A DNA stretch of 57,628 bases from assembly GCA_965372715.1 (NCBI GenBank), contig CBDVDH010000019.1:1-57628 (forward strand), read 5' to 3'. The notes beneath the pieces were generated by a model. That model had not been told where the DNA came from. It made no database searches and worked only from the letters and a program-made list of their open reading frames with translations. The stretch comes from an uncultured bacterium. GTDB lineage: Bacteria > B130-G9. Positions 213 through 37,215 of the stretch are shown one piece after another; positions within the stretch are counted from its first letter, which is position 1, and the number at the start of each line of letters is the position of its first letter. The position numbers and the translations under genes are program-made.

Positions 213-372
213 GGTGGCCGCACGGCTGGGTCAATCTGATTATTGGGGACGCGACGATGCATTGACTGTTCAAGTTGAACTGGATAATCTTGCGACGACA
301 GGCCGCGCAGCTTAGGAGTCCGCGGCCGACATGTTTCTGGTTTCATAGCAACACTTTAGGGGAGATGATGTC

Positions 373-1803
373 ATGAGAAGCAGACTCGTTGTTCTGATGT
401 TGTCGGTCGCTTTTGCCATTGGCTTGTGTGGGTGTGCTGGCATGCACCACGAAGAGGCGCAAGTTGTGAAGGTTCCAGCCAAGTCCATCGAAAGGCACAT
501 CGAGGTCGAGAAGCTGGTGGTGGGCTCTCAAGCGGAAGGACTTGGGATTCTGCCGGGCGATGTGATTCTCGAGTATGACGGCGCGGAGATCGAGACGGTG
601 TCCGACCTGAAGAAGGCGATCGCGGCAGCCACTGCGCCGGAGGTCAAGCTCGTCGTCAGGCGTGGCGACAAGGTGATTGAGATGACGGCGAAGCCCGGCA
701 AGATCGGCGTCTATCTGCGGACTGTGGCGAAGGTTCATCGGATGCCCGACGCGAAGATCATCGAGGGAATCGAGCCCCTGTCGTGGGATAGCGGTGAGAT
801 AATCAGCTTCATCGGCTGCGTCAGGCGTGTACTGGCACACTACGGCGAGCAGCACAATTACATGTATCTCATGGGCATCTCAGGCGCCGCGTTCAGGATA
901 CACTTCTGGGGCGGGTGGTGTCCGAGTTCGGCGGATCCGGGCTGCGGCTTCAACTGCTCGGCTGCGCTGCTCCGCGCGCTGGGCAGGAAGAGCGAAGAGC
1001 ACTTCATGAAAACCCAATTTCACGAAATGCCGGGCGCCCTCGATGCGGAACAGATGAAGCAGAAGATCACCGAAAGCATCGGCAAAGGCGTCCCGGTGGT
1101 CGCAATCGACATCGTTCACGTTCCCGAATGGGGCATCATCACAGGCTATCAGAACAACAAGCAGGACTTCCTCTGCCGCTCGTATTTCGACTATGGGATG
1201 GAAGACTACAATATCGCGGAGAAGACCCCCTGGATTGCACTGACTATTGGTGAGAAGGGCGAGGCGCTCTCCGGTGAGGAGGCGGTGCGACAGTCGCTGG
1301 CACTTGCCCACCACGTTGGCGTTACGGAGAAGTTCGATAACTACTTCTCGGGCACGGCTGCCCTAAAGGCCTGGATAGCGGCGCTCGAGAACGAGGCGTC
1401 GTTTGCGACGGTTGCCCTCGCGGAGACAAAGCCGGAGGAAGACCCATGCGGGGCCAATGCCTGGATATATGAGACTTTTCGGGCCAGCAAACCGGTCGCG
1501 GCCGAGTTTGTGCGAACCTATGCCGGCGTGTTCGGCCAAATGAACAACGCTGCTCTGGAGCTGGCGAGTATCTACGATGAGCAAGCCAAGCTGCTCGAGG
1601 CAGGCACGGAAAGCGTTGTGTTCCCTTATATGGGCGATGCGAAGGAGTGGACACAGGAGCTTCGTAACAAGCAGGCCGCCACGCTGAAGGAGGTTCTGAA
1701 GCTGGAACGTGAGGCGCTGGAGCTCATCGAGACGATCATGGAGGTCTGCGAGATCGAGCCTTACAAGGAGCCTGACAAGCCGCAGGAGGAGCCGGCGCCA
1801 TAG
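373..1803 (+). CDS. Exported (lipo)protein with N-terminal PDZ domain and a C-terminal BtrH/papain-like-fold domain
   Basis: Signal peptide ending LCGC; PDZ motif GSQAEGLGILPGDVILEYDG...VVRRG; C-terminal YLMGISGAAF...WCPSS...EWGIITGY; GGAG RBS upstream. Confidence 0.7.
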   Translation: MRSRLVVLMLSVAFAIGLCGCAGMHHEEAQVVKVPAKSIERHIEVEKLVVGSQAEGLGILPGDVILEYDGAEIETVSDLKKAIAAATAPEVKLVVRRGDKVIEMTAKPGKIGVYLRTVAKVHRMPDAKIIEGIEPLSWDSGEIISFIGCVRRVLAHYGEQHNYMYLMGISGAAFRIHFWGGWCPSSADPGCGFNCSAALLRALGRKSEEHFMKTQFHEMPGALDAEQMKQKITESIGKGVPVVAIDIVHVPEWGIITGYQNNKQDFLCRSYFDYGMEDYNIAEKTPWIALTIGEKGEALSGEEAVRQSLALAHHVGVTEKFDNYFSGTAALKAWIAALENEASFATVALAETKPEEDPCGANAWIYETFRASKPVAAEFVRTYAGVFGQMNNAALELASIYDEQAKLLEAGTESVVFPYMGDAKEWTQELRNKQAATLKEVLKLEREALELIETIMEVCEIEPYKEPDKPQEEPAP

Positions 1804-1925
1804 CGCCCGGATGTGTGTGGCGGGCTTTCCAGCCTGCCTTCTGTAGCGATTGCTGTACTGCTCACACGCAACACTCTGTCGCGCGAGACTCTGTCGCGCG
1901 AGACTCTGTCTTTGGCAGGCTGGAA

Positions 1926-2190
1926 GAGGCTGGGTCGTAAGTCGATTGACGAGGATTTCGTTGTCCATTCAGACAACAACGATACAGGAAATACGGTCGA
2001 TTGTCAAGATCAACGCGGCGGTTTTCTTATGCGACGCGATTGTCGGAATCGGCCTGTAGGGGCGGTGTCTCAGACCCGCCCGCCTACATGAATCCCTGCG
2101 GATACGAGGCATCTTATGCGAGCATCAATTCGAGAGGGCGGGTCTGAGACCACGCCCCTACGCAACCGCAACGAATTATGACCCAGCCTC
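1926..2190. mobile_element. MITE (265 bp) with 19-bp terminal inverted repeats and 4-bp target-site duplication
   Basis: Left end GAGGCTGGGTCGTAAGTCG; right end reverse complement GAGGCTGGGTCATAATTCG; GGAA on both flanks (1922-1925, 2191-2194); homologous copy at ~54761-55052. Confidence 0.85.
2056..2161. repeat. GTAG-type REP doublet inside the MITE
   Basis: GTAGGGGCGGTGTCTCAGACCCGCCC (2056-2081) and inverted GGGCGGGTCTGAGACCACGCCCCTAC (2136-2161). Confidence 0.8.
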
Positions 2191-2299
2191 GGAAAGCCTG
2201 CCCCGCACCCACGGGAGTCACGACCTCGAATTATTCAGGCTAGCATTCTACTGTCCCCACTTCGGCGAAAGCCCTGACCTGTGTTAGATTCGGTTGGCC

Positions 2300-4780
2300 A
2301 TGCAAAGCGCAAGCAAGGCTGAGTCATTCTGTAACCTCGCGTTCGTCGCGGTTCTTTCGTTCGTGCTGTTCGTTTCACCGCTCGCGAGAGTGGAGGACGA
2401 CCCGCTGGGCCTTATCAAGTGGTTCATCACGCACTGCGGCGTGTTTGCGATGCTTGCGTTTCTCATCTCGTCGTGGGCGTTCGCTGGGCGAGTACGCCTC
2501 TTCAGCTCCCCTGTCCTGCTCCCCATCCTGCTGATGATCTGCCTTTCTGCACTCTCGCTCATCTGGACCGCGCCTCGTTTCGAGAGCTTCACTCGTATGC
2601 GATACATCCTGCTCTCCTGGGCCCCCTTCTTCCTGTGCCTCCTCGCGCCGATTGGCCGCCGGATGAAGTGGATTGCCGCGGTCTCGCTCGTAGTGGGAGT
2701 GTCGATCTGCTCGTCCATCGGCGTCACCCAATACTTTGAGGTTCTAAAGACGGTATGGGAGAGGCTCCCCTGGGAGCCTGAACTCGGCAAGCGAGTGTTC
2801 TCGACAATGTGGAATCCCAACTTCCTCGCTGGCCTTCTTATTCTGATCTTGCCGGTCATTTTGGCGCTTGCACGAACGTCGAGGAAACGATGGCTCAGCC
2901 TAGCGTTTCTCGCCCTTTACTACCTCAACTTCTCGTGCCTGCTCTTCACCAACTCCTGGGGCGGATGGGCTGGCTATGTCGCCTCATTGATCTTTGTCTT
3001 CGTAGCTGGGAGGAGGACCAACGGGCGTTCGCCGGAGAAGCCCACTGCCCAGAGACGTCTCACGGAGCCCGACGTCGGGCGCGTAGCCGCCGCGCATTGG
3101 GTATCGGCGAGGCTGGTTCTCATGCTACTGTGCGTCGCAACCGCCATAGCCTTCTTCGCGTCCAAAGGGAAGACGGTCGCCGGGACCACGGTCGGCATCT
3201 CGGAGCGCGAGAAGATGTGGAACAGCACGATGATGCTGATCAAGAGGCGCCCAATGGGAGTTGGCGTCGGCAATTTCGCGGTTTTCGAGAACAAATACGA
3301 GCACAAATTCATTGAGCCGCTTCAAGCCACAACGGCGGAGTTCCGCAAGGACAGAGACAACCTGCTCCACAACTCGCTCTACTGCCATAACGAGTTTCTC
3401 GAGACCGCTCTGGAGACGGGCTTCGTCGGCCTCATTCTGTTTTTCTGGCTCATTCTGACAATAGGGCGGCTGCCGTTTAAGGAGAGGCCTTATCCCCCAG
3501 GTGGCCAGAAGAACGCGGACCCCGCCGCTGTCGAGGCCCGATTCATGGTCCACGCCGTTGCGGCCGGGGCCATAGCCGTCATCGCGCAGAGCATCGTCAG
3601 CTACCCCTTGCGAGTGCCCACAACGGTCACGACACTCGCGGCGCTTCTCGGCCTCTTTGCGCCTCGCAGACAACTCCTTGAGTTCAAGTTCAACATTCCT
3701 CAGCCCCTCAAGTATGCTGTGCTCTGCTTGACATTGCTCGGAGCCGCGCTGGCCTGCGTACCGGGGTACCGGCCGCTCGCCGCAGAGGCGCTCTACGTTA
3801 GGGGGATGAAACATCTTTTGGCAGACAGGGACTACGCCGCCGCGAGAGGGCAATACGAGCGTGCGATCGCTTTCGGACTGCCGCGCTACAACGTCTATTT
3901 CCGGCTGGGCGAGTCGCAGTTAAGGCTGAAGCAGTTTGACTTGGCTCTCAAGACTTACCAGAGGGCGCTTGAGATTCAGCCTTACCACGAGTATTCGTTC
4001 TTCGGTATCGCCGAGGCGTCAAGGGGACTGGGGCGGACAGAGGACGCCATCGCCAACTACGAGAAGGCAATAGAATACGAGCCGAGGTTCCTCGACGCCT
4101 ATCTTGAGTTGGCGAGGCTCTTGAGGTCCGAAGGCGAGTCAGAAGAAGCCGTCAGGACGCTGGATCTGGGGCTGCACTACGTGCCCAAGGGCCGTGAGAT
4201 GGCGCTGGATGCTGCCGTCGCCTCGGTCGAGCTGGGAGCCATTAAGCAGGCCGAGGCCTATCTCAACAGCATGTTGGCCAACGACCCGTCAGACGCGGTC
4301 CTGCTCTACAATCTCCGCATTCTACGCGACGTGGAACCGGATGAGGCGGGCGCCGACCGATCGGCCGTTGCTCGGCGGATGATCGACTCGGACGCGGCAA
4401 AATGGCTGCTCACACTGTCCAAGATGGGCGCGGTCTTCGTCCAAAAGGGCAAACACGTCGCGGCGAGGCGCGAGTTCGAGGCGATCTTGGGCCGTTTCCC
4501 GGGCTATCCGCCTGCGCTCTCGAACGTCGCGACAGCCTACTTCCTGGAGGGCGACGCGGCCCGCGCCGAAAGCTACCTACTGCAAGCCATTTCGTTCGCG
4601 CCCCGGCACGTCTCATATCGGGCCGCACTCGCCGACATCTACGCCAGCCTCAAGAAATGGGACGCCGCCGAGGACCAGCTCCGCCAGGCCCAGCAGCTCG
4701 ACCCCAATAACGCGGACATCGAGAATCGGCTCCAGTGGCTGCGGCGGCAGCGAACGCTAGCTAGCGGCCCCGGGGACTGA
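2300..4780 (+). CDS. O-antigen ligase (Wzy_C)-family membrane protein with C-terminal TPR repeats
   Basis: Multiple TM helices; STMWNPNFLAG, GVGVGNF and HNEFLETALETGFVG motifs; TPR repeats in the C-terminal third. Confidence 0.85.
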   Translation: MQSASKAESFCNLAFVAVLSFVLFVSPLARVEDDPLGLIKWFITHCGVFAMLAFLISSWAFAGRVRLFSSPVLLPILLMICLSALSLIWTAPRFESFTRMRYILLSWAPFFLCLLAPIGRRMKWIAAVSLVVGVSICSSIGVTQYFEVLKTVWERLPWEPELGKRVFSTMWNPNFLAGLLILILPVILALARTSRKRWLSLAFLALYYLNFSCLLFTNSWGGWAGYVASLIFVFVAGRRTNGRSPEKPTAQRRLTEPDVGRVAAAHWVSARLVLMLLCVATAIAFFASKGKTVAGTTVGISEREKMWNSTMMLIKRRPMGVGVGNFAVFENKYEHKFIEPLQATTAEFRKDRDNLLHNSLYCHNEFLETALETGFVGLILFFWLILTIGRLPFKERPYPPGGQKNADPAAVEARFMVHAVAAGAIAVIAQSIVSYPLRVPTTVTTLAALLGLFAPRRQLLEFKFNIPQPLKYAVLCLTLLGAALACVPGYRPLAAEALYVRGMKHLLADRDYAAARGQYERAIAFGLPRYNVYFRLGESQLRLKQFDLALKTYQRALEIQPYHEYSFFGIAEASRGLGRTEDAIANYEKAIEYEPRFLDAYLELARLLRSEGESEEAVRTLDLGLHYVPKGREMALDAAVASVELGAIKQAEAYLNSMLANDPSDAVLLYNLRILRDVEPDEAGADRSAVARRMIDSDAAKWLLTLSKMGAVFVQKGKHVAARREFEAILGRFPGYPPALSNVATAYFLEGDAARAESYLLQAISFAPRHVSYRAALADIYASLKKWDAAEDQLRQAQQLDPNNADIENRLQWLRRQRTLASGPGD

Positions 4781-6732: not shown

Positions 6733-8007
6733 ATGAGGCAGGCAAGCTTATTCCAGCAGCAAGAGGTTACGGGATCCGGTCTGACTACAGCTGAGGCGCC
6801 GCCGTTCAAAAGGATAAGGGACCCAGGGCTCGACTTTCGAGGCGTTCAGGCATCGACTGGTGTCTATGGGATACATCCCTATCCGGCCATGCTGCATTTC
6901 CTGCTGGTCAGGAGACTCATGACAGACTATTCGGCGGAAGGGGAGCTTCTCCTGGACCCCTTTGTGGGTTCGGGAGTCACGGCCGTCGAGTCCTTAATCG
7001 GAGCCAGACGTTTCGCCGGCTTCGACATCAACCCCATGGCTGTGCTGATATCGAAGGTGAGAACTACGCCAATCGCAAATAGCAGGCTTACTGAAACGCT
7101 TGCGCACATCACGCAGAGGTACGAACGCGCCAGCGCCTCACCCGTTGAGTTCCATAACATCCACTACTGGTTTCACGATGACGTAATTCAGAAGCTGTCT
7201 AATCTGAGAGAAGCCATTGCTGCGATAGAAGACGATGCTTTGCGGAGGTTCTTTGAGGTGGCTTTCTCGGAGACGGTGAGGCGGGTCTCCAGGACCCGAT
7301 ACAACGAGTTCAAACTGCTGCGGAAGAAGGACGACGAAGAAAAAGTAAACGTTATGAAGACATTTCGGGATGTCTCGCTGAAGAATATCCAGATGCTGAC
7401 CGATTTCTATCGTGACTTTCCTCCTAAGACGCGCAGTCTCCAAGTTGAGGAGAGGAACGTCATCGGAGGTATACCGGTGGAGGACGGCTCGGTTGATCTG
7501 GTAGTAACCTCTCCGCCCTACGGTGATTCAAGAACCACTGTCGCCTACGGCCAGTTCTCGCGGCTCTCGCTCAGGTGGCTGGGGCTGGAGGAAAACGTCG
7601 ATAGGACTTCATTGGGCAGCAAGGCCCGCGACATATCCCGCGACCTGCCGTCCGGCGTGCTTTACGATTTCGTTGCGAGAATCGCTGACAAGAACGAGAA
7701 GCGAGCCCGAGAGGTCTTCTCGTTCTACTTCGACCTATATCGCACGGTCGAAATCATCGCGAGGAAGGTGAAGTCCGGCGGGTACGTGTGCTTCATCGTC
7801 GGAAACCGACGCGTGAAGGGCATCGAGCTGCCGACCGACAAGATCTCAGCGGACTTCTTCGAGAGCAACGGCTTTCGGCACATCGGCGCCTCAGTCCGAG
7901 CCATCTCCAACAAGCGGATGCCGGCTCAGAACTCTCCGTCCAACGTCGCAGGCCAAAAAGACCTCACGATGCGACACGAATACATCGTGGTTTTGCGCAG
8001 AAGTTGA
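6733..8007 (+). CDS. DNA amino-methyltransferase (likely N4-cytosine, alpha motif order)
   Basis: IHPYPAM; motif I LLDPFVGSG precedes motif IV VVTSPPY. Confidence 0.85.
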   Translation: MRQASLFQQQEVTGSGLTTAEAPPFKRIRDPGLDFRGVQASTGVYGIHPYPAMLHFLLVRRLMTDYSAEGELLLDPFVGSGVTAVESLIGARRFAGFDINPMAVLISKVRTTPIANSRLTETLAHITQRYERASASPVEFHNIHYWFHDDVIQKLSNLREAIAAIEDDALRRFFEVAFSETVRRVSRTRYNEFKLLRKKDDEEKVNVMKTFRDVSLKNIQMLTDFYRDFPPKTRSLQVEERNVIGGIPVEDGSVDLVVTSPPYGDSRTTVAYGQFSRLSLRWLGLEENVDRTSLGSKARDISRDLPSGVLYDFVARIADKNEKRAREVFSFYFDLYRTVEIIARKVKSGGYVCFIVGNRRVKGIELPTDKISADFFESNGFRHIGASVRAISNKRMPAQNSPSNVAGQKDLTMRHEYIVVLRRS

Positions 8008-26140: not shown

Positions 26141-26661
26141 GAGTTCTGGGCGTTGACCCTAGCTGTAGATCGACCGGCTACGGAATAATAGAACAAGACG
26201 AGAAGGGCAAGCTTTCCCTGATAAGATACGGGGCAATCCCGGTCCCCACCAAGGTCTCGTTGCCAGAAACGCTTCAGATCATTCATTCCGATATACTTGC
26301 CACCATCTCGGAATTCTTGCCTGACCTCGTCTCAATGGAGGCGGTCTTCTACGCCCAGAATGTGCGGTCGGCCTTCAAGCTCGGCGCCGTCAGGGGAGTT
26401 GTCATGCTCGCGGCGCAGAACTCCGGCGTGCCCGTCATGGAATACTCCACAACTGCTATCAAGCTCGCCGTCGCCGGCTTCGGCAGAGCCACGAAGGAAG
26501 CGGTCCAGAAGATGGTCAAGGTGGCACTGGACTTGAAGGAGATACGGCTTCCGCACGACGCCTCGGATGCCCTGGCGGCAGCCATCTGCCACCTCAACAC
26601 CGAGAAGCTGAGGGCACGGGTTGAGGCCTCAACCAGCAAGCAAGTCGCGAGTAATAGATGA
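26137..26661 (+). CDS. ruvC: Holliday junction resolvase RuvC (CTG start inferred)
   Basis: Frame extends upstream of the listed ORF to (L)[17 protein letters not shown]; also EAVF and [12 protein letters not shown]. Confidence 0.92.
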
Positions 26662-26686: not shown

Positions 26687-27277
26687 ATGATTGACTACAT
26701 ATCCGGCACAATTGTTGAGAAATCCCCGGAACGCGTGGTTCTTGACGCAGGCGGTGTGGGTATCTCAGTTCAGATCTCGTTTTGGACCTATCAGCAGCTC
26801 GGTCAGGTTGGCTCAAAGGTGAAGCTCCTGGCGCATCTTCATTTCAGAGAGCCGACGTTTGAGCTCTTTGGGTTTGCCACATCTTCGGAGCGAGATGTCT
26901 TTCGCCTGCTCATCCAGGTCTCTGGCGTTGGGGTCAAGGTCGCCAGAACGATCCTTTCGGGCATCGAACCTCGCGAGGTCAGGAACGCCATCGTGGAAAG
27001 CGACATCTCTCGACTTGCGTCCGCCCCGGGAATTGGCCCGAAGACCGCGGAGCGCATCGTCGTCTTTCTACGAGACAAGGCGAGCCAGATGGCCATCTCA
27101 GCGGAGCCCGGCGTCCCCGCGGCCGGAGGAGTCGAAAGGGACGCCGTCGCCGCGCTCGAATCCCTCGGCATCCCGCCAAATACCGCCCGAGCCGCCGTCC
27201 GCAAGCTCATCAAGCAGAAGGGCCCGTCAATTCAGCTCGACGAACTCGTCAAAGAAGCGCTGAAGGCCCTGTTCTAG
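26687..27277 (+). CDS. ruvA: Holliday junction branch migration protein RuvA
   Basis: MIDYISG; LFGF; VSGVGVK; PGIGPKTAERI. Confidence 0.96.
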   Translation: MIDYISGTIVEKSPERVVLDAGGVGISVQISFWTYQQLGQVGSKVKLLAHLHFREPTFELFGFATSSERDVFRLLIQVSGVGVKVARTILSGIEPREVRNAIVESDISRLASAPGIGPKTAERIVVFLRDKASQMAISAEPGVPAAGGVERDAVAALESLGIPPNTARAAVRKLIKQKGPSIQLDELVKEALKALF

Positions 27278-27391: not shown

Positions 27392-28171
27392 TCATTGTCC
27401 GGCGGGAGAGCTGACTAGGAAGGATTGGCTAATCGGAGGTATGAGTTGGGCTGGCATCTTCTCGCGGGAGGGAACACACTCTGCGCTCGATCGCAAAATC
27501 ATCTGTCGCAGGGCAAAGAGATAATGTGTTCGTGAAAACGGCCTGGTTTTACGGGATTTGAGCAATACTTCGCAGAACTGTGTGTTGGCGTCAAACAACA
27601 TAATGCCGACCTTCATTGTTTTGAACGCCCTCAGGTTCTTTCTCAGTATTCGCTCGCGCTCCTTCGGAAACACTGTCATAACGCGAGTGGCGAAGGCCCT
27701 ATATTGCGTTGCCTGATAAAGAGCCCGGCGCCAATCATGCAACTTCAGCTCAAACGCCCACATATTCAATTGTGCATCCCGCCACATCTCCGAGAGGACA
27801 TACGCCCCGGTGTCACGTTGCACCACAAGCCTATCCGTTACCAGACGTGAGAGAATCCGGCGTGTTGTCGTATGAGAAAAGCCCGTAGCTTCCGCGATGT
27901 AATGTCGCCTCCGTGGTGCGCCGAATCTGAGAGCTGATAAGACATGGATACAGGCGGTATCGGAGACCCAGTAGCTATTTAGGGGTTCTTCAACGCTCAC
28001 TTCGACCGAGCTTGAGCCCTCGGCAGCCACAAAATCCGCAATCCCCTGTCGGCAGGTCACCTCCGGATGGACGGTTGCGAAATCCGGAAGGACGCCCCAT
28101 GAGGCCGAGGAGTCCAACCACTCCATAAAGGCCTTCGCCATTTCCTTTTCGGAAAACGAGAATTGACTCAT
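27392..28171 (-). CDS. PD-(D/E)XK nuclease-like protein with inserted winged HTH
   Basis: EVTCRQGIADFV ... IAEATGFSHTTTRRILSRLV (wHTH) ... AFELKLHDWRRALYQATQY (ExK...QxxxY). Confidence 0.75.
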   Translation of the reverse strand: MSQFSFSEKEMAKAFMEWLDSSASWGVLPDFATVHPEVTCRQGIADFVAAEGSSSVEVSVEEPLNSYWVSDTACIHVLSALRFGAPRRRHYIAEATGFSHTTTRRILSRLVTDRLVVQRDTGAYVLSEMWRDAQLNMWAFELKLHDWRRALYQATQYRAFATRVMTVFPKERERILRKNLRAFKTMKVGIMLFDANTQFCEVLLKSRKTRPFSRTHYLFALRQMILRSSAECVPSREKMPAQLIPPISQSFLVSSPAGQ

Positions 28172-29406
28172 GCCGGAATCCTCATTCCCAGTGTTTGGGC
28201 AAAGCCGTCAATTGCCCTTCGCCAGCTGTTCAGATGGGATGATCCGTGTGAACCAGCAGAGTTGATCCCAGCTCTACGAAGCCTTGAATAAATATTCTCG
28301 GCATTCAGGATGACTTCCTTCACTTTGGCGAGGCGAGCGCCCACATTCTGCTCTCCGGACATGACGTCCTTTATCGTTTCCTGTATCGCTGCCCAATTAT
28401 ATAACATCAAATTGCCCGGCCGCCAGAATGAGTCCCTTGTAGGATCCACTGCAATATCCTCGTGGATCGACTTCTCCAAAATCACATCCGAGCGAGGCAC
28501 TACGGGCAGTATGGCATTAAACTCCGCTTGGGAGAAGGAGTTCAGAAGAGGTGTCGATAGATAGCGAGGCAGCGGGGCCCGCCAACCAGCCTTCTTGCCC
28601 TCGGGGAGGGCCGGTGGCGGTCGCATCGCCTTGGAGGAGAAACGTTTTAGATTGTGGAGCCATCCGAAGGCCGTTGCCTTCGCTCCTACAGCATGAAGAG
28701 GAATGCCCAGCAAATCAGTGTACCCAACAACTACATCCACATCCTGATCCTGTGCTCCGGCAAGAACATAGACAAGATACAGAAGATTCTTCAGGCGCTC
28801 CCAGTCGATCTCTTGTCCATATTTGCCATCCTCGCGATTAAGGACTACGTAGAATCCATCTGCCTGGAAATTAGTGATGACATCAAGAAAGGCCATGAGA
28901 TTATCAGTATCATCCAAGGCTGTCTCAGAGAATACAAGAGAAAGCAGAATCGGCAGTTCATCTCTCGAAGCCGATTTGAATTCAAGACTCGCGGCAGCCA
29001 TTTGAATAGCAGCGAGACGTCTCCAGTTCTCCCCAAGACTCCTTATTAGAACAGTCGGGCTGACCAAGTATGAAACCGGCAATCGCATCTGAAAATCAAG
29101 CACATCACTAGTATATCTTATAATGCTCGATGGAACGAAGAAATCCTCGCCCTTTAAATCTGGCCGGTAATAGTCATAATCTGGGAGCCGGCATTCCTTC
29201 AGGGGTGTTATCGTAGATAAATGAAATTGCGGGTCTAGAAGCAAGCTGGCACCGGGGAAGTCACGTCTCAAGCTCCCTGCCCATTCGATCAATTTCTCTG
29301 GCTTTTCGTTTCTGGGCCCGATAATGACTCCATCGACAATACCCAAGTTGAGTCCTCTATCGATCTTGTCTGACTTGCCATACCCGTGCTGCGCATAGAT
29401 TGTCAT
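28168..29406 (-). CDS. Hypothetical protein, putative TIM barrel (beta-protein/sce7725- or TGT-like)
   Basis: 412-aa ORF with ATGA overlaps on both sides; alternating beta/alpha pattern (GVIIGP, LLLDPQ, LVSPT, DGFYVV, VVVGY); fold is inferred. Confidence 0.55.
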   Translation of the reverse strand: MTIYAQHGYGKSDKIDRGLNLGIVDGVIIGPRNEKPEKLIEWAGSLRRDFPGASLLLDPQFHLSTITPLKECRLPDYDYYRPDLKGEDFFVPSSIIRYTSDVLDFQMRLPVSYLVSPTVLIRSLGENWRRLAAIQMAAASLEFKSASRDELPILLSLVFSETALDDTDNLMAFLDVITNFQADGFYVVLNREDGKYGQEIDWERLKNLLYLVYVLAGAQDQDVDVVVGYTDLLGIPLHAVGAKATAFGWLHNLKRFSSKAMRPPPALPEGKKAGWRAPLPRYLSTPLLNSFSQAEFNAILPVVPRSDVILEKSIHEDIAVDPTRDSFWRPGNLMLYNWAAIQETIKDVMSGEQNVGARLAKVKEVILNAENIYSRLRRAGINSAGSHGSSHLNSWRRAIDGFAQTLGMRIPA

Positions 29407-30338
29407 AATTCAGATTCCTCTGCATTCATTTTGATCGCCCGGAGCGCCGAGGTCATGCGTTCACAGCTTCGATAGCGAAGATGAGGTTCTTTGGCCAAGA
29501 CCCGCAGAATGACGTCCTCAAATTCTCTGGGCAAATCCCGGCGATAGAGCGTCGGACGATCGGGGGGATTGATACGAATTCTCTCATAGACTTCCGAATC
29601 AGAAAGGGCCAAACGGTGAAAGGGATGAACTCCAGTCGCAGCCTCATACAGCACTTGGCCCAGCAGGAACAAATCTGAGCGGAAATCCATGAGCCTCCTT
29701 TTGCCCAAGTCGAGTTGCTCCGGCGAATAGTAGGGGAAGGTACCAACAACAAAACCATGGCGAGTTAGGGATCGATCCGCCAAATCAAAGACCAAACCCA
29801 TATCAAGAAGGACGAAACTCCCATCCGAATCTCGCCGCATGATATTCTCCGGCTTGATGTCTCTGTGGATCTGTCGATGAACCCACAGATGCTGTATCGC
29901 TTCGGCAATGTTTAATCCGAGACGGATCAATTCAGGCGTGGCTAGAATGGACTTAGTGGTCAGAATCCGTCTGAGATTCTCACCGTCAATGAATTCCTCA
30001 CAGAAATAGATGAGTGACTGGCCTCTGAAATCAACATGGCGAGTAGGAATCGGGCCCAATTTGGCAATATATGGCGAATCACACAATCCCATGACCCGCA
30101 CCTCTCTTTCTATCCGGGCAGTCACATGATCGATTCTCTCTTGTATCACCTCGGAAGTTTCACCATGGTCTTTGCTCACTTCGACAAGTGCGAATTTCAC
30201 CACCCAGCGCTCGCCCTCGATGGTACATGGAAAGACAAGTTTCTGGCCCCCACGCATAGGCTCACCAATGTCGGACACCTCAGGCAATAGCTGAGAAACA
30301 TCATCGGCTGTAAGATTCGGAAGCACCATCCCCTGCAC
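29403..30338 (-). CDS. Hanks-type Ser/Thr protein kinase (stand-alone, cytoplasmic)
   Basis: GGQKLVF, VVK, IEREV, IHRDIKPENI, DMG, GTFPYYSPEQ, SDLFLLG. Confidence 0.93.
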   Translation of the reverse strand: MQGMVLPNLTADDVSQLLPEVSDIGEPMRGGQKLVFPCTIEGERWVVKFALVEVSKDHGETSEVIQERIDHVTARIEREVRVMGLCDSPYIAKLGPIPTRHVDFRGQSLIYFCEEFIDGENLRRILTTKSILATPELIRLGLNIAEAIQHLWVHRQIHRDIKPENIMRRDSDGSFVLLDMGLVFDLADRSLTRHGFVVGTFPYYSPEQLDLGKRRLMDFRSDLFLLGQVLYEAATGVHPFHRLALSDSEVYERIRINPPDRPTLYRRDLPREFEDVILRVLAKEPHLRYRSCERMTSALRAIKMNAEESEL

Positions 30339-30495
30339 CAGTCAAAAAAGTCCATTCCCTCGTCTATGAAGAGTATACAACCCATTGGGACTACTTTTCA
30401 AAGGTTTTCTGTGAATGAGAACCAACCAGGCGAGCCGGAATGGGTTTCCTGAATGCCATCGCGGCAAGGAGTGCGGTTGACGAATGAGATGAAGT

Positions 30496-30633
30496 CTAGC
30501 CCGCCCTCGCGGTCAGGCGCATCACAGGCGAGTCGAAAGTGAATGGTTTGCCGCGCATGTCGGGCAGGACCTCGATGTCAGCGAATCCCGCTCTCTCAAG
30601 GAGCGAGACCAGTTTATCCCCAAGGGACACGTC
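30496..30633 (-). pseudogene. 3-prime remnant of a paralogous SAM-methyltransferase gene
   Basis: WDKLVSLLERAGFADIEVLPDMRGKPFTFDSPVMRLTARAG* aligns with the neighbouring MTase C-terminus CHELIALLCSCGFCDVKAFGDLEGGPVTFDSRMMRLVAKRK*. Confidence 0.75.
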
Positions 30634-30694
30634 GGGCCAGCAGTCCGCTTTGTCCGTTACCTTCTGCTCTTCGTGTTCTTCGTGGCTTTGTGGT

Positions 30695-31472
30695 TCACTT
30701 CCTCTTGGCCACTAGGCGCATCATCCGCGAGTCGAATGTGACGGGACCACCCTCGAGGTCGCCAAACGCCTTGACGTCGCAGAAGCCGCAGCTGCACAGA
30801 AGCGCGATCAGCTCGTGACAGGAATAGACCCGCAGGTCCAGCGGCATCTCTGTGAGCTTTCCGTTTTCCAGAAAACGCCAGAGGCAACGATTGACGCTTG
30901 TAGCAAGGTCAAACTCTCGCTCCTCGATGACGACTAGGTCCTCATCCCCCGGCCACCAACCTCTCGGTTGGAAGTTCTTGATTATCCAGTCGCGGTTGAT
31001 GAGTTCGATAAAGAACTTGCCACCGTCAACCAGGCAATCCCTGAACTTCTGGACGATTGAGGCGTTGGTTTTCTCATCAAAGAGACCGAAACTGGTCCAC
31101 ATATTGATAACGAGATCGAACTTCCGCTCGAACGAGAGCTCGCGAACGTCCATCGGGATGAATTCGGCTTCAACATCCTCTGATTCCGCTCGCTTCCGCG
31201 CCTCGTTCAGGTAGCTCTCAAAGCGATCGACGCCAACGACGTTGTAGCCTCGTCTGGCGAGCTCAATACAGTGCCGACCATAGCCACAGCAGGCATCGAG
31301 GACGCTCGCTCCGGGGGGAGATGCCCGTCTTGTCGATTATGCAATCAACCTGTTTCAGCGTGGCCTCATCCGAACGGGTCGCTATTACCCGGCCAAACTG
31401 CGCCGCGAAGAAATCGTCCGTCCAGTGTTTTTCAAGTTTCAAGTTTCAAGTTTCAAGTTTCAAGTTGGTCAT
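30695..31472 (-). pseudogene. Class I SAM-dependent methyltransferase, frameshifted (or sequencing error)
   Basis: VLDACCGYGRH motif I lies upstream of the listed ORF; N-terminal HWTDDFF...IDKTGIS is in another frame, joined across G6 at 31313-31318. Confidence 0.75.
31433..31466. repeat. Heptamer tandem repeat (CAAGTTT) x~5
   Basis: Read directly; lies at the 5-prime end of the methyltransferase gene. Confidence 0.9.
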
Positions 31473-35748: not shown

Positions 35749-35829
35749 GGTCTTTTGCCTCGTCTCATAGGGGGTTTCCGTTTAGGAAAACGGGGCGAAA
35801 GAGAAATGGAGTATGGGGCAAAAGAGAGA

Positions 35830-35980
35830 AAGCCCAACCTGCGTAAGGGCACCACTCGTCTCCACCCGTTTCAACGCCCGTGGACCTCAGGAAGCATCGC
35901 GCGACACAAGACTATCACCCACTCATGGGATGGCCGGTGAAAGCCGGTGAGAAAAATTCAGTGAACACGGCCGGTTGTCC
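35830..35980. ncRNA. Candidate rod-shaped structured RNA (6S-like?)
   Basis: Nested long-range complementarity between the two ends plus a CCGGT-GAAA-GCCGG hairpin; no credible ORF. Confidence 0.3.
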
Positions 35981-35994
35981 GGCAAAAGGTAACG

Positions 35995-37215
35995 CTATTC
36001 GCCTTTTTTCTCCTTCTCGGCTTCTTCTTTCTTCTCAGGCGCCGCTTCTTCATCGGCTTTTGCTTTCTCTTTGTCCTTTTCTACTTCTTCGTCTGGCTTG
36101 GGCTCAGCTTCAGCCTCCGGCGCGTCCGCTGGCGGTTTCTTTTCGGCCTTCTTCTCGGCAGATTCTTTCTCCTCCGCCAAACCAGGCTCTTCCTCCTTCG
36201 CCGGGGCCTCTTTCAAAGCCTGTCTGGCCCGCTCATCTTCAGCGAGCTGCTCCGCTGTCTTCAGTATCCTAAACTTGTAGGACTTTAGAGACGACCGAAC
36301 CCACCTGGTTGCTCCCTTATAGACAGCCACCTGAACGTAATGCGGTCGTCCATCCGCGGTAACATCGGGGTCGGTCTCGTAGGTCAGGATCGTCGCCTGG
36401 GCCCGGATGTCCTTAGAGATGCTTTCATAGGCCGCTGGCAGCGATTCTTCGGTCGGTGCGGTGAAGATATTGCCCTTGGTCTCGCGGCAGATACGCGAGA
36501 ACGTTCTTCTGTCCGCTTCAAGGCCTAGCGCCACGAAGAAAATCCTTACGTCGTGTTCCTTTGCGAACCGTATAGCAGTGAACCATTCCCGAACGCTGTT
36601 ATTGTCTTCGCCGTCGCTCAACACGATTATCACCTTGGTCGCATCGTGGTACGCCGGGAAAAAGCTATCGCTAGCGTCAGCGATAGCATCGTATATGGCG
36701 GTTTGGCCACGAGGCTTCAGCTTCGCGATCTGCTCTTGGATTAGCTCGGTGTCGTTTGTGAAATCCTGAACAACGGGCGTATAACCGCGCCAACTGTTGA
36801 ATTCCATCACCATTACTTTGTCGTCGGGCCCGAGTCGGTCAAGATACGTCTCGACACCCTCAGCCACCTTCTCCATCCTGCCAAGCATGCTGCCGCTGGT
36901 GTCGATCAAAAAAACGGTGGCGGTCATGCGAGACGACTCCGCCATAAAGTCAGTGATCGGTATCTCGTCCTCAAAAAGCCTGAGCGAAAGATCACCATTG
37001 AATGGGATCAGGTTACCAGCGTAGTCGCGGAAGATTATCTCGCAGCTGACGGTCGGGTACTTCGAAATGTCAAGGTTGACAATCTTCAGAACTGCGGGTC
37101 TCAGGCCCGGCGGGAATTCGGTCTCGGAATACCCGAGCGAGTAGATAAAAAGCGTGCAGACTAAAACAAGGATAAACGCCCCATGAGCGCGAAAACTGCG
37201 CCTCGCCTGACTCAC
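35995..37215 (-). CDS. Exported VWA-domain protein with a charged low-complexity tail
   Basis: MIDAS DTSGSM; TAIYDAI; LSDGEDN; E/K/A-rich C-terminus. Confidence 0.9.
   Translation of the reverse strand: MSQARRSFRAHGAFILVLVCTLFIYSLGYSETEFPPGLRPAVLKIVNLDISKYPTVSCEIIFRDYAGNLIPFNGDLSLRLFEDEIPITDFMAESSRMTATVFLIDTSGSMLGRMEKVAEGVETYLDRLGPDDKVMVMEFNSWRGYTPVVQDFTNDTELIQEQIAKLKPRGQTAIYDAIADASDSFFPAYHDATKVIIVLSDGEDNNSVREWFTAIRFAKEHDVRIFFVALGLEADRRTFSRICRETKGNIFTAPTEESLPAAYESISKDIRAQATILTYETDPDVTADGRPHYVQVAVYKGATRWVRSSLKSYKFRILKTAEQLAEDERARQALKEAPAKEEEPGLAEEKESAEKKAEKKPPADAPEAEAEPKPDEEVEKDKEKAKADEEAAPEKKEEAEKEKKGE

Follow-up and report, generated by a model that had tools for sequence, protein, structure and literature searches.

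A kinase, a transglycosylase-like barrel and a wHTH-nuclease form a conserved gene trio that is probably related to the phage P4 gop-beta-cII anti-phage system

Introduction

Is a three-gene cluster that matches no catalogued defence system something categorically new, or a variant of an architecture that is already known? This question is raised by a locus at positions 27,392 to 30,338 of contig CBDVDH010000019.1 (GenBank assembly GCA_965372715.1) from an uncultured bacterium of the lineage B130-G9; the whole stretch analysed, positions 1 to 57,628 of this contig (57,628 nucleotides), is referred to below as the window. On its minus strand the locus encodes a Hanks-type Ser/Thr protein kinase, a middle protein with a predicted triosephosphate isomerase (TIM) barrel, and a putative PD-(D/E)XK nuclease containing a winged helix-turn-helix (wHTH) domain. 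An initial annotation, made from the sequence alone, had read this trio as a candidate undescribed defence system in which the kinase controls a nuclease effector. The present analysis supports the view that the three genes are a real and conserved functional unit, and indicates that the trio is probably an undescribed relative of the gop-beta-cII anti-phage system of phage P4. Since its nuclease is remotely homologous to P4 cII, and its architecture runs parallel both to a system that has been tested and to a class described recently, we regard the trio as a variant of a known architecture and not as categorically new.

A conserved three-gene unit

The components of the locus and the joints between them are as follows.

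29403-30338, minus strand: kinase gene, Hanks-type Ser/Thr, 311 aa, GTG start (from the list of open reading frames, ORFs)
28168-29406, minus strand: middle gene, 412 aa, predicted TIM barrel resembling tRNA-guanine transglycosylases (TGTs) (ORF list)
27392-28171, minus strand: third gene, 259 aa, putative PD-(D/E)XK nuclease of the cII/sce7726 type (ORF list)
27782-28018, minus strand: predicted wHTH inside the nuclease core, approximately residues 52-130, between strands 2 and 3
29403-29406, minus strand: ATGA stop/start overlap of the kinase and middle genes (plus strand TCAT)
28168-28171, minus strand: ATGA stop/start overlap of the middle and third genes (plus strand TCAT)

The three minus-strand genes and their ATGA overlaps are as first annotated, with TCAT on the plus strand at both junctions. 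Conservation of the trio was assessed in one genome per species with a pattern for the N-terminal peptide conserved in the middle-protein family (QHGYGKSDKI), which gave 31 loci. A kinase homologue lies directly 5' of the middle gene and on the same strand at every one of them (31/31), and the third gene, recognised with a third-family profile, adjoins the middle gene in all 29 loci whose sequence continues beyond that gene; L024 and L025, which stop within it, are excluded from the 29, and L002, L026, L028, L029 and L031 are among the 29 but outside the third-family profile used. The initial annotation had named co-occurrence of homologues among the checks on its proposal, and they do co-occur, the kinase in 31/31 loci and the third gene in 29/29. 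Orientation of the third gene is more variable: 7 of the 29 loci share with the window a third gene that is co-directional with the other two, and the remaining 22 have a convergent one. On the Natribaculum breve plasmid CP095393.1 (L038, 2384-5140; the record is unannotated there) the order is permuted to third-kinase-middle, all on one strand, and linkage that survives such rearrangement argues for a joint function. No fourth conserved gene was detected among up to four nearest ORFs of the 31 loci. A methyltransferase encoded 5' of the kinase in the window was considered as a further member and rejected, as it adjoins the trio only in the window and in locus L002. These observations support the three genes as a real, conserved functional unit.

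The unit is spread widely. Record titles place its hosts in the Planctomycetota, Acidobacteriota, Omnitrophota, Cloacimonadota and Chloroflexota, and further in the Actinomycetota, Bacillota, a delta proteobacterium, Bathyarchaeia and Halobacteria. Neighbouring genes were surveyed across 101 ORFs, comprising up to two nearest on each side of the trio in each of the 31 loci. Restriction-modification (R-M) or other defence-type domains stand beside it in 9/31 loci, namely Type I HsdM/S/R, MmeI, an Mrr-fused methylase, HEPN, a CAP12-type TIR, BrxC/D, SNF2-PLD and HNH, and integrase, transposase or relaxase genes do so in 5/31. Taken together, R-M, other defence or mobile-element genes occur nearby in 13/31 loci, which makes a defence role for the trio plausible.

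PADLOC-DB 2.0, Pfam and NCBIfam returned no named system at the locus, only generic kinase and wHTH matches, in keeping with its first description as an unnamed system, and our literature search found no published description of a system that unites a kinase, a TGT-like barrel and a nuclease of the cII kind.

Kinship of the third protein with P4 cII

The third protein carries the motifs of a PD-(D/E)XK nuclease (E8, E37, G43-x-x-D46, E141-L-K143 and Q153-x-x-x-Y157). E8, D46, E141, K143 and Q153 are present in 31/31 members of its family and E37 in 29/31, and G43 and G189 are likewise invariant in this alignment of 31 sequences, whose mean identity is 27%. In the structural model (predicted local distance difference test, pLDDT, 85.6) helix 8-20 and strands 31-40 and 43-51 are followed by the wHTH, which in turn is followed by strand 137-142, helix 147-159 and strand 163-169. 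As modelled, the protein is a PD-(D/E)XK core with a DNA-binding domain set between its second and third strands. Library searches recover only the wHTH (HVO_A0261_N, MarR_2, HTH_20, IclR and others, at approximately residues 74-128), and Foldseek on the model finds mainly wHTH proteins of the MarR/IclR type, plus the small 3dnx of unknown function. Both the motifs, now seen in 31/31 members, and an insert that matches wHTH families only agree with the initial description of nuclease motifs interrupted by a wHTH.

Third protein and cII share the same order of motifs: E, E, [R/G]-x-A-D, A-F-E-[I/L]-K and Q. They differ in the distance from D46 to E141-x-K143, which is 91-95 residues in 29/31 third-family members compared with 11-12 in 34 cII-family proteins. 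Once the columns of the insert were removed, hhalign aligned the third family to the cII family at a probability of 70-91%; the alignments cover 114-116 columns, spanning all motifs, with E values of 1e-6 to 4e-5. Four choices of insert boundary were used, three of which gave 85-91%, and the best of 30 column-shuffled controls reached 0.7%. In addition, the NCBIfam family sce7726_fam (NF033832) is matched by 10/31 third-family members, with a best E of 1.8e-4, and is the sole family matched by more than one member that is neither DNA-binding nor a transcription regulator. On these profile comparisons we conclude that the third protein is best regarded as a remote homologue of P4 cII, of the sce7726 family, that has gained a wHTH inside its core. 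The initial annotation had mentioned in passing that sce7725/sce7726 genes pair a beta-protein-like gene with a nuclease-like gene, which proved to be the right lead.

Three loci depart from the usual form of this gene. In L027 (7112-7777) the D-to-ExK spacing is 33 and in L030 (7151-7891) it is 73, and it is possible that these two proteins are intermediates between cII-type and wHTH-insert nucleases. In L010 (7140-7875) the gene is split into overlapping ORFs, 7140-7772 and 7552-7875, probably by a frameshift or a sequencing error.

Fold of the middle protein

Family searches gave the middle protein no assignment. The window protein has no family match in Pfam, NCBIfam or PADLOC, 40 members of its family scanned singly against Pfam and NCBIfam gave no relevant family, and the Pfam TGT family PF01702 was matched neither by the window protein nor by the 40 members. 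A profile search of PDB sequences with the family alignment returned chance-level matches only and no TGT, and the ESM Atlas offered unnamed clusters only. The family comprises 133 proteins in an indexed search and 1551 representatives of 50%-identity clusters (E<=1e-3) in an exhaustive one.

The fold is more informative. An AlphaFold2 model built on a 40-sequence alignment (pLDDT 90.9; predicted template modelling score, pTM, 0.92) consists of alternating strands and helices, and in a Foldseek search of the PDB tRNA-guanine transglycosylases rank first (E 2.4e-6 to 3e-4; template modelling, TM, score ~0.5), led by mouse/human QTRT1 (E 2.4e-6, TMq 0.49) and followed by archaeosine TGT (ArcTGT) and bacterial (Zymomonas) TGT. 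Cap10 of CBASS (cyclic oligonucleotide-based anti-phage signalling system) is also matched (E 2.6e-4). The best BFVD matches are phage TGT, queuine tRNA-ribosyltransferase and DpdA-like proteins, and none of the 50 matches listed in that search is identifiable as P4 beta. The best fold matches in PDB and BFVD are thus to the TGT superfamily, comprising bacterial TGT, QTRT1, archaeosine TGT, DpdA and CBASS Cap10. From this modelling we predict with high confidence that the middle protein is a TIM barrel most like tRNA-guanine transglycosylases, which agrees with the putative TIM barrel proposed at the outset.

Conservation within the family fits this fold. D58, P117, L174, G184, D231, G241, G248 and R281 are invariant. 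The active sites of TIM barrels usually lie at strand ends, and when the alignment is mapped onto the model D58 and D231, together with the near-invariant E161 and R191, stand directly after a predicted barrel strand; P117 lies just beyond a strand, and G184 and R281 lie inside strands. After the barrel the model continues with a beta-hairpin (281-292) and then helices. This succession of barrel, hairpin and helices is TGT-like, and the acidic residues D58, D231 and E161 directly after strands may be so too; TGTs have catalytic aspartates at the C-terminal face of the barrel, for which D58 and D231 are candidates. On the other side, the missing PF01702 match, the modest TM score and the lack of a conserved Cys/His cluster set the middle protein apart from the TGT superfamily.

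The kinase and its predicted complex with the barrel protein

The first protein of the trio matches Pfam Pkinase (E 1e-26) over residues 68-293 and has no second domain. Among 29 aligned family members K48, E79, H158-R159-D160, K162, N165, D179 and T200 are invariant and G181, P206 and E207 nearly so, which completes the Hanks motifs: the subdomain II Lys, the helix C Glu, HRDxKxxN, DxG and the GT...PE segment. The original description of intact Hanks motifs with no sensor domain is thereby upheld, and the invariant catalytic residues suggest that the kinase is catalytically competent and of Ser/Thr type. Two features mark the family, a C-lobe motif P285-H286-L-R288-Y289-R290 and a conserved N-terminal peptide in which P7 occurs in at least 26 of 32 sequences. 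The best PADLOC matches are to PD-T4-6 kinase models (E 1.6e-44), and MADS kinase models match too; these PADLOC and NCBIfam matches cover the generic kinase domain only, and many unrelated kinase models match as well. Like PD-T4-6 and Stk2, which are single-gene kinase defence systems, the trio kinase is of the Hanks Ser/Thr type and has no sensor domain. Unlike such stand-alone kinases it is always paired with a barrel gene, which follows it in 31/31 loci, and defence of the PD-T4-6 type was rejected as an identification although the kinase models match.

Locus L006 (2334-5994) has a second, divergently oriented Ser/Thr kinase gene (Pkinase 6.8e-47) just 5' of its trio kinase. The trio kinase ORF itself is 634 aa long there, with the kinase domain at 360-622; either the ORF has been called too long or the kinase may carry a fusion at its N terminus.

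A model of the kinase with the middle protein gave an ipSAE of 0.74 (runs 0.73, 0.76 and 0.74), compared with 0.00 for the best of three controls. In the calibration of the method, 58 of 80 solved complexes attain the mark used, as do 2 of 110 mismatched pairs; these counts apply only roughly, our own alignments having been used. Contacts agreed by at least 94% between runs, and the pLDDT of the partner was at least 86. On the kinase side the predicted interface comprises residues 214-220, 279 and 284-294, including the PHLRYR stretch and the invariant D218 and R220, and on the barrel side it comprises 171-181, 214-223 and 406, around the invariant L174 and the near-invariant L215 and N221. 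The interface residues of the barrel are on its outer helices, away from the active face. The model supports binding of the kinase to the barrel protein.

Comparison with gop-beta-cII and TIM-B systems

In phage P4, gop (247-648, plus strand) and beta (651-1718, plus strand) are followed by cII on the opposite strand (1746-2540, minus strand; 264 aa), and beta matches PF14350 at 4e-56. According to Rousset 2022 (PMC9122126), gop-beta-cII confers protection from lambda and P1, and expression of gop is toxic when beta is missing; a phage gene triggers the system according to Silas et al. (10.1101/2023.04.06.535777). In its text on such systems a preprint of October 2026 (10.64898/2026.10.19.760177) describes P4 beta (PF14350, 'TIM-B') as a TIM barrel related to deazaguanine transglycosylases, associated with effectors that include Gop, PAACC, HigB, REase, Pol-beta, GNAT, sirtuin, RES, caspase and 2TM-B; P4-type TIM-B is coupled there to an overlapping, convergently transcribed restriction endonuclease (REase) gene. 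No kinase is named among the partners in that TIM-B text.

Plasmid homologues of beta show the same arrangement. In L033-L036, four of the five records compared (the fifth is unannotated), a convergent gene lies 3' of beta. It is annotated sce7726 in L034-L036, where it overlaps beta by 4, 4 and 38 bases respectively, and as a hypothetical protein in L033, where the overlap is 4 bases. The genes 5' of beta vary among these four: they encode hypothetical proteins of ~160-350 aa, and L036 also has a sigma-70 family factor and an ImmA/IrrE peptidase in the vicinity. Such variation is consistent with the effector position of TIM-B systems, which is described as differing from one system to another.

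Set beside these systems, the trio has an effector-like gene followed on the same strand by a TGT-like barrel gene, plus an REase-fold gene of ~260 aa, all of which gop-beta-cII has too. The REase gene is convergent in P4, in L033-L036 (where it overlaps) and in 22/29 trio-family loci, and kinase and barrel are co-directional in 31/31 loci, as effector and barrel are in TIM-B systems. There are also differences. First, the nuclease gene of the window is co-directional and translationally coupled, unlike the convergent cII of P4. Second, the effector position is held by a 311-aa Hanks kinase in the trio and by the 133-aa Gop in P4. Third, the wHTH of the trio nuclease lies inside its core, whereas the cII family has helical extensions at both termini and a C-terminal HeH (helix-extended loop-helix) domain, as described in 10.64898/2026.10.19.760177. 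The TGT-like fold of the middle protein, with its hairpin and following helices, may correspond to the TIM-B barrel with its C-terminal hairpin and helical extension, the comparison being one of fold class.

On balance, we consider it somewhat more probable than the converse that the trio follows the gop-beta-cII plan with a kinase in the effector slot, and serves as a conflict module, for anti-phage defence or abortive infection, that has spread horizontally. Several observations weigh against this reading, the first group of which concerns the middle protein. Its TM score to TGTs is only ~0.5, with a root-mean-square deviation of 7-9 Å. TGT structures have a zinc-binding Cys/His cluster after the barrel, whereas the middle family conserves no such cluster and has no Cys in the invariant or near-invariant columns of its alignment. 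As a sequence relative of P4 beta the middle protein had to be rejected, with no signal by hhalign, Pfam or NCBIfam: PF14350 is matched by 0/40 family members even at E<=10, hhalign gives a probability of 0.4% with P4 beta alone and of 0.2% when P4 beta and five plasmid homologues are aligned as a set of 6 sequences, and the gop-beta-cII-type models of NCBIfam and PADLOC do not match the middle protein. Its link to beta is one of fold class and gene order only, the fold of beta being that given by the preprint. A search of 50,697 phage records gave no homologue of the middle protein, and plasmid records gave one, haloarchaeal.

The second group concerns the third protein. Foldseek on its model gave no nuclease match below E 1e-3, the wHTH dominating the results. 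Over whole proteins, hhalign of the third family against cII gave probabilities of 9% and 16.5%, which is weak because of the wHTH insert. The third protein of the window does not match NF033832 at E<=1, the cut-off of that model is 70 bits, and P4 cII scores 151 bits on it, the third-family matches being far weaker. A third group concerns sampling and context. The locus scan sampled only members bearing the N-terminal peptide, and others might have different partners. The neighbour survey has no background control, and in 18/31 loci the neighbours are only housekeeping or unannotated genes. Finally, window and L002 share the same context (purM, methyltransferase), so the trio is not a recent insertion there.

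Proposed mechanism and alternative readings

The analysis establishes that the trio is conserved, which folds its proteins have, that kinase and nuclease keep their catalytic motifs, that the nuclease is remotely homologous to cII and that the complex model passes its controls; the defence role, the direction of restraint between the proteins and the chemistry of the barrel are inferred. The analogy with gop and beta, the invariable pairing of kinase and barrel genes and the complex model together lead us to propose that the barrel protein restrains or gates the kinase. Kinase and barrel protein would be co-produced and form a complex, and in the uninfected cell the barrel would hold the kinase in check, by binding it or else by means of a product or a modification of the transglycosylase type. 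A signal of infection would lift this restraint, whereupon the freed kinase would phosphorylate host or phage proteins and so stop growth or phage development. The wHTH-nuclease may serve as a second effector acting on DNA, as a regulator of the operon, or both.

The wiring put forward in the initial annotation makes the kinase the switch, the barrel a sensor or modifier of nucleic acid, and the wHTH-nuclease the only, phosphorylation-controlled effector. It draws on a nuclease that keeps its catalytic residues in 31/31 members and has a DNA-binding domain of its own, on a barrel that resembles tRNA- and DNA-acting enzymes, and on the translational coupling of all three genes in the window. 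It fits less well with the genetics of the family, where the nuclease gene is on the opposite strand in 22/29 loci and upstream in one plasmid, whereas the kinase-barrel pair never separates, and with a complex model (made for that pair only) that places the kinase on the barrel. Moreover, in P4 gop-beta-cII, the closest system known, the toxic partner that beta restrains is the first gene and not cII, as reported in PMC9122126. We therefore consider this wiring doubtful. Of the initial interpretation, the conserved unit, the sce7726 lead and a plausible defence role stand, whereas the assignment of controller, sensor and sole effector is not supported as stated: with a toxic first gene restrained by a barrel in P4, an invariable kinase-barrel pairing and the complex model, the trio is more convincingly seen as related to a known architecture, with a kinase added, than as a system that has no relatives.

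Within the proposal that the barrel restrains the kinase there is a more specific variant, in which the barrel is a nucleobase-transfer enzyme that either marks the bound kinase covalently or generates a small product sensed by the kinase. Cap10, one of the fold matches, marks the CBASS cyclase, and the conserved N-terminal peptide of the kinase (P7) and the passing complex model leave room for marking of the kinase by the barrel. The modelled interface, on the outer helices of the barrel and not on its active face, counts against it, and we regard the variant as rather unlikely.

Still more doubtful is a role outside immunity, with the trio as a mobile addiction (toxin-antitoxin) cassette, or as a regulatory or metabolic module whose wHTH protein is mainly a transcription factor. 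The 18/31 loci with housekeeping or unannotated neighbours, the stable chromosomal context common to the window and L002, and the transcription-factor wHTH families that are the only library-level matches of the third protein are what such a role would lead one to expect. A patchy distribution over bacterial and archaeal phyla, a low guanine-cytosine (GC) content, nuclease residues that every one of the 31 members keeps at a mean identity of 27%, the remote homology between the nuclease and a protein of an anti-phage system that has been tested, and R-M, TIR, HEPN or BREX-type (bacteriophage exclusion) neighbours in 9/31 loci all argue the other way.

The least probable reading, and one we think very unlikely, is a Dpd-like modification-restriction system in which the barrel, like DpdA, would carry out a base exchange on the DNA of its own cell, unmarked DNA would be cut by the wHTH-nuclease and the kinase would regulate or assist; the fold matches to DNA/tRNA base-exchange enzymes and phage DpdA-like proteins, the restriction-endonuclease fold with its DNA-binding insert and the frequent R-M genes beside the trio suit it, but PF01702 is unmatched in 40 members, the Cys/His cluster is not conserved, the up to four nearest ORFs of the 31 loci include no recurrent gene for deazapurine synthesis or for a DpdB-like ATPase, and a Hanks protein kinase has no known role in Dpd-like systems.

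Implications

If the preferred reading of the trio as a conflict module on the gop-beta-cII plan is true, that plan would be one branch of a much wider class, not confined to enterobacterial P4-like satellites but present also in Planctomycetota, Acidobacteriota, Actinomycetota, Chloroflexota and archaea, where the effector would be a protein kinase resembling those of eukaryotes. A kinase is an easily assayed effector and would thus provide a tractable route to the role of the TGT-like barrel, also for P4 beta. Should the barrel indeed mark the kinase, a kinase immune effector gated by a transglycosylase-type reaction would represent a new mode of kinase control, and would give a first biochemical handle on P4 beta and the TIM-B class. 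The trio is a candidate addition to defence catalogues, PADLOC-DB 2.0 not detecting it, and its middle protein represents a large family (the 1551 cluster representatives) outside the families of the Pfam and NCBIfam versions searched.

Genomic surroundings in the window

The trio is flanked by housekeeping genes. To its left, YebC and RuvC precede RuvA, all on the plus strand with the last ending at 27277, and RuvA (26687-27277, plus strand; RuvA_N 1.4e-19, HHH_5, RuvA_C) is the convergent neighbour, as initially noted. The RuvC ORF (26260-26661, plus strand) matches profile positions 40-148 of 148 only, about 39 N-terminal positions being absent from the frame; a frameshift, or a start codon not in the ORF list, would account for this. 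The trio is also more AT-rich than its surroundings, as had been remarked: its GC content is 0.511 compared with 0.561 for the window, 0.571 for the 5 kb to the left and 0.540 for the 5 kb to the right, and a GC content this low is found in only 2% of 547 window stretches of the same size. Scans of the window for Rfam families and tRNAs found nothing. One candidate regulatory feature lies upstream of the trio.

30372-30401, minus strand: promoter-like site TTGAAA-18-TATACT, ~35 bases 5' of the kinase start codon (consensus match only)

This site agrees with the consensus at 10 of 12 positions; promoter-type sites in the region number 4, compared with 2.9 +/- 1.6 in shuffles, which is not significant alone.

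On the minus strand 5' of the kinase are an AIR (aminoimidazole ribonucleotide)-synthase-related gene and a class-I methyltransferase gene. The order AIR-synthase-related gene, methyltransferase, kinase, barrel, nuclease is the same in L002 (1-4604), where the kinase is 65% and the middle protein 43% identical to those of the window, and this shared order implies that the trio is old in this lineage. In the window the methyltransferase is apparently frameshifted near 31330, its N-terminal part (31263-31445) being in a different frame from the SAM (S-adenosylmethionine)-binding part, which begins in the frame 30695-31336. Between this gene and the promoter-like site of the kinase, 30496-30640 hold a second, diverged copy of the 3' end of the gene, ~45 codons long. 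Frameshift and 3'-end duplicate (30496-31445, minus strand) could be a scar of the arrival of the trio. Farther along the window, positions 35750-36750 stand out by an AT skew that is strongly negative, with a minimum of -0.42 at 36000-36499, and that has no parallel in the rest of the stretch profiled.

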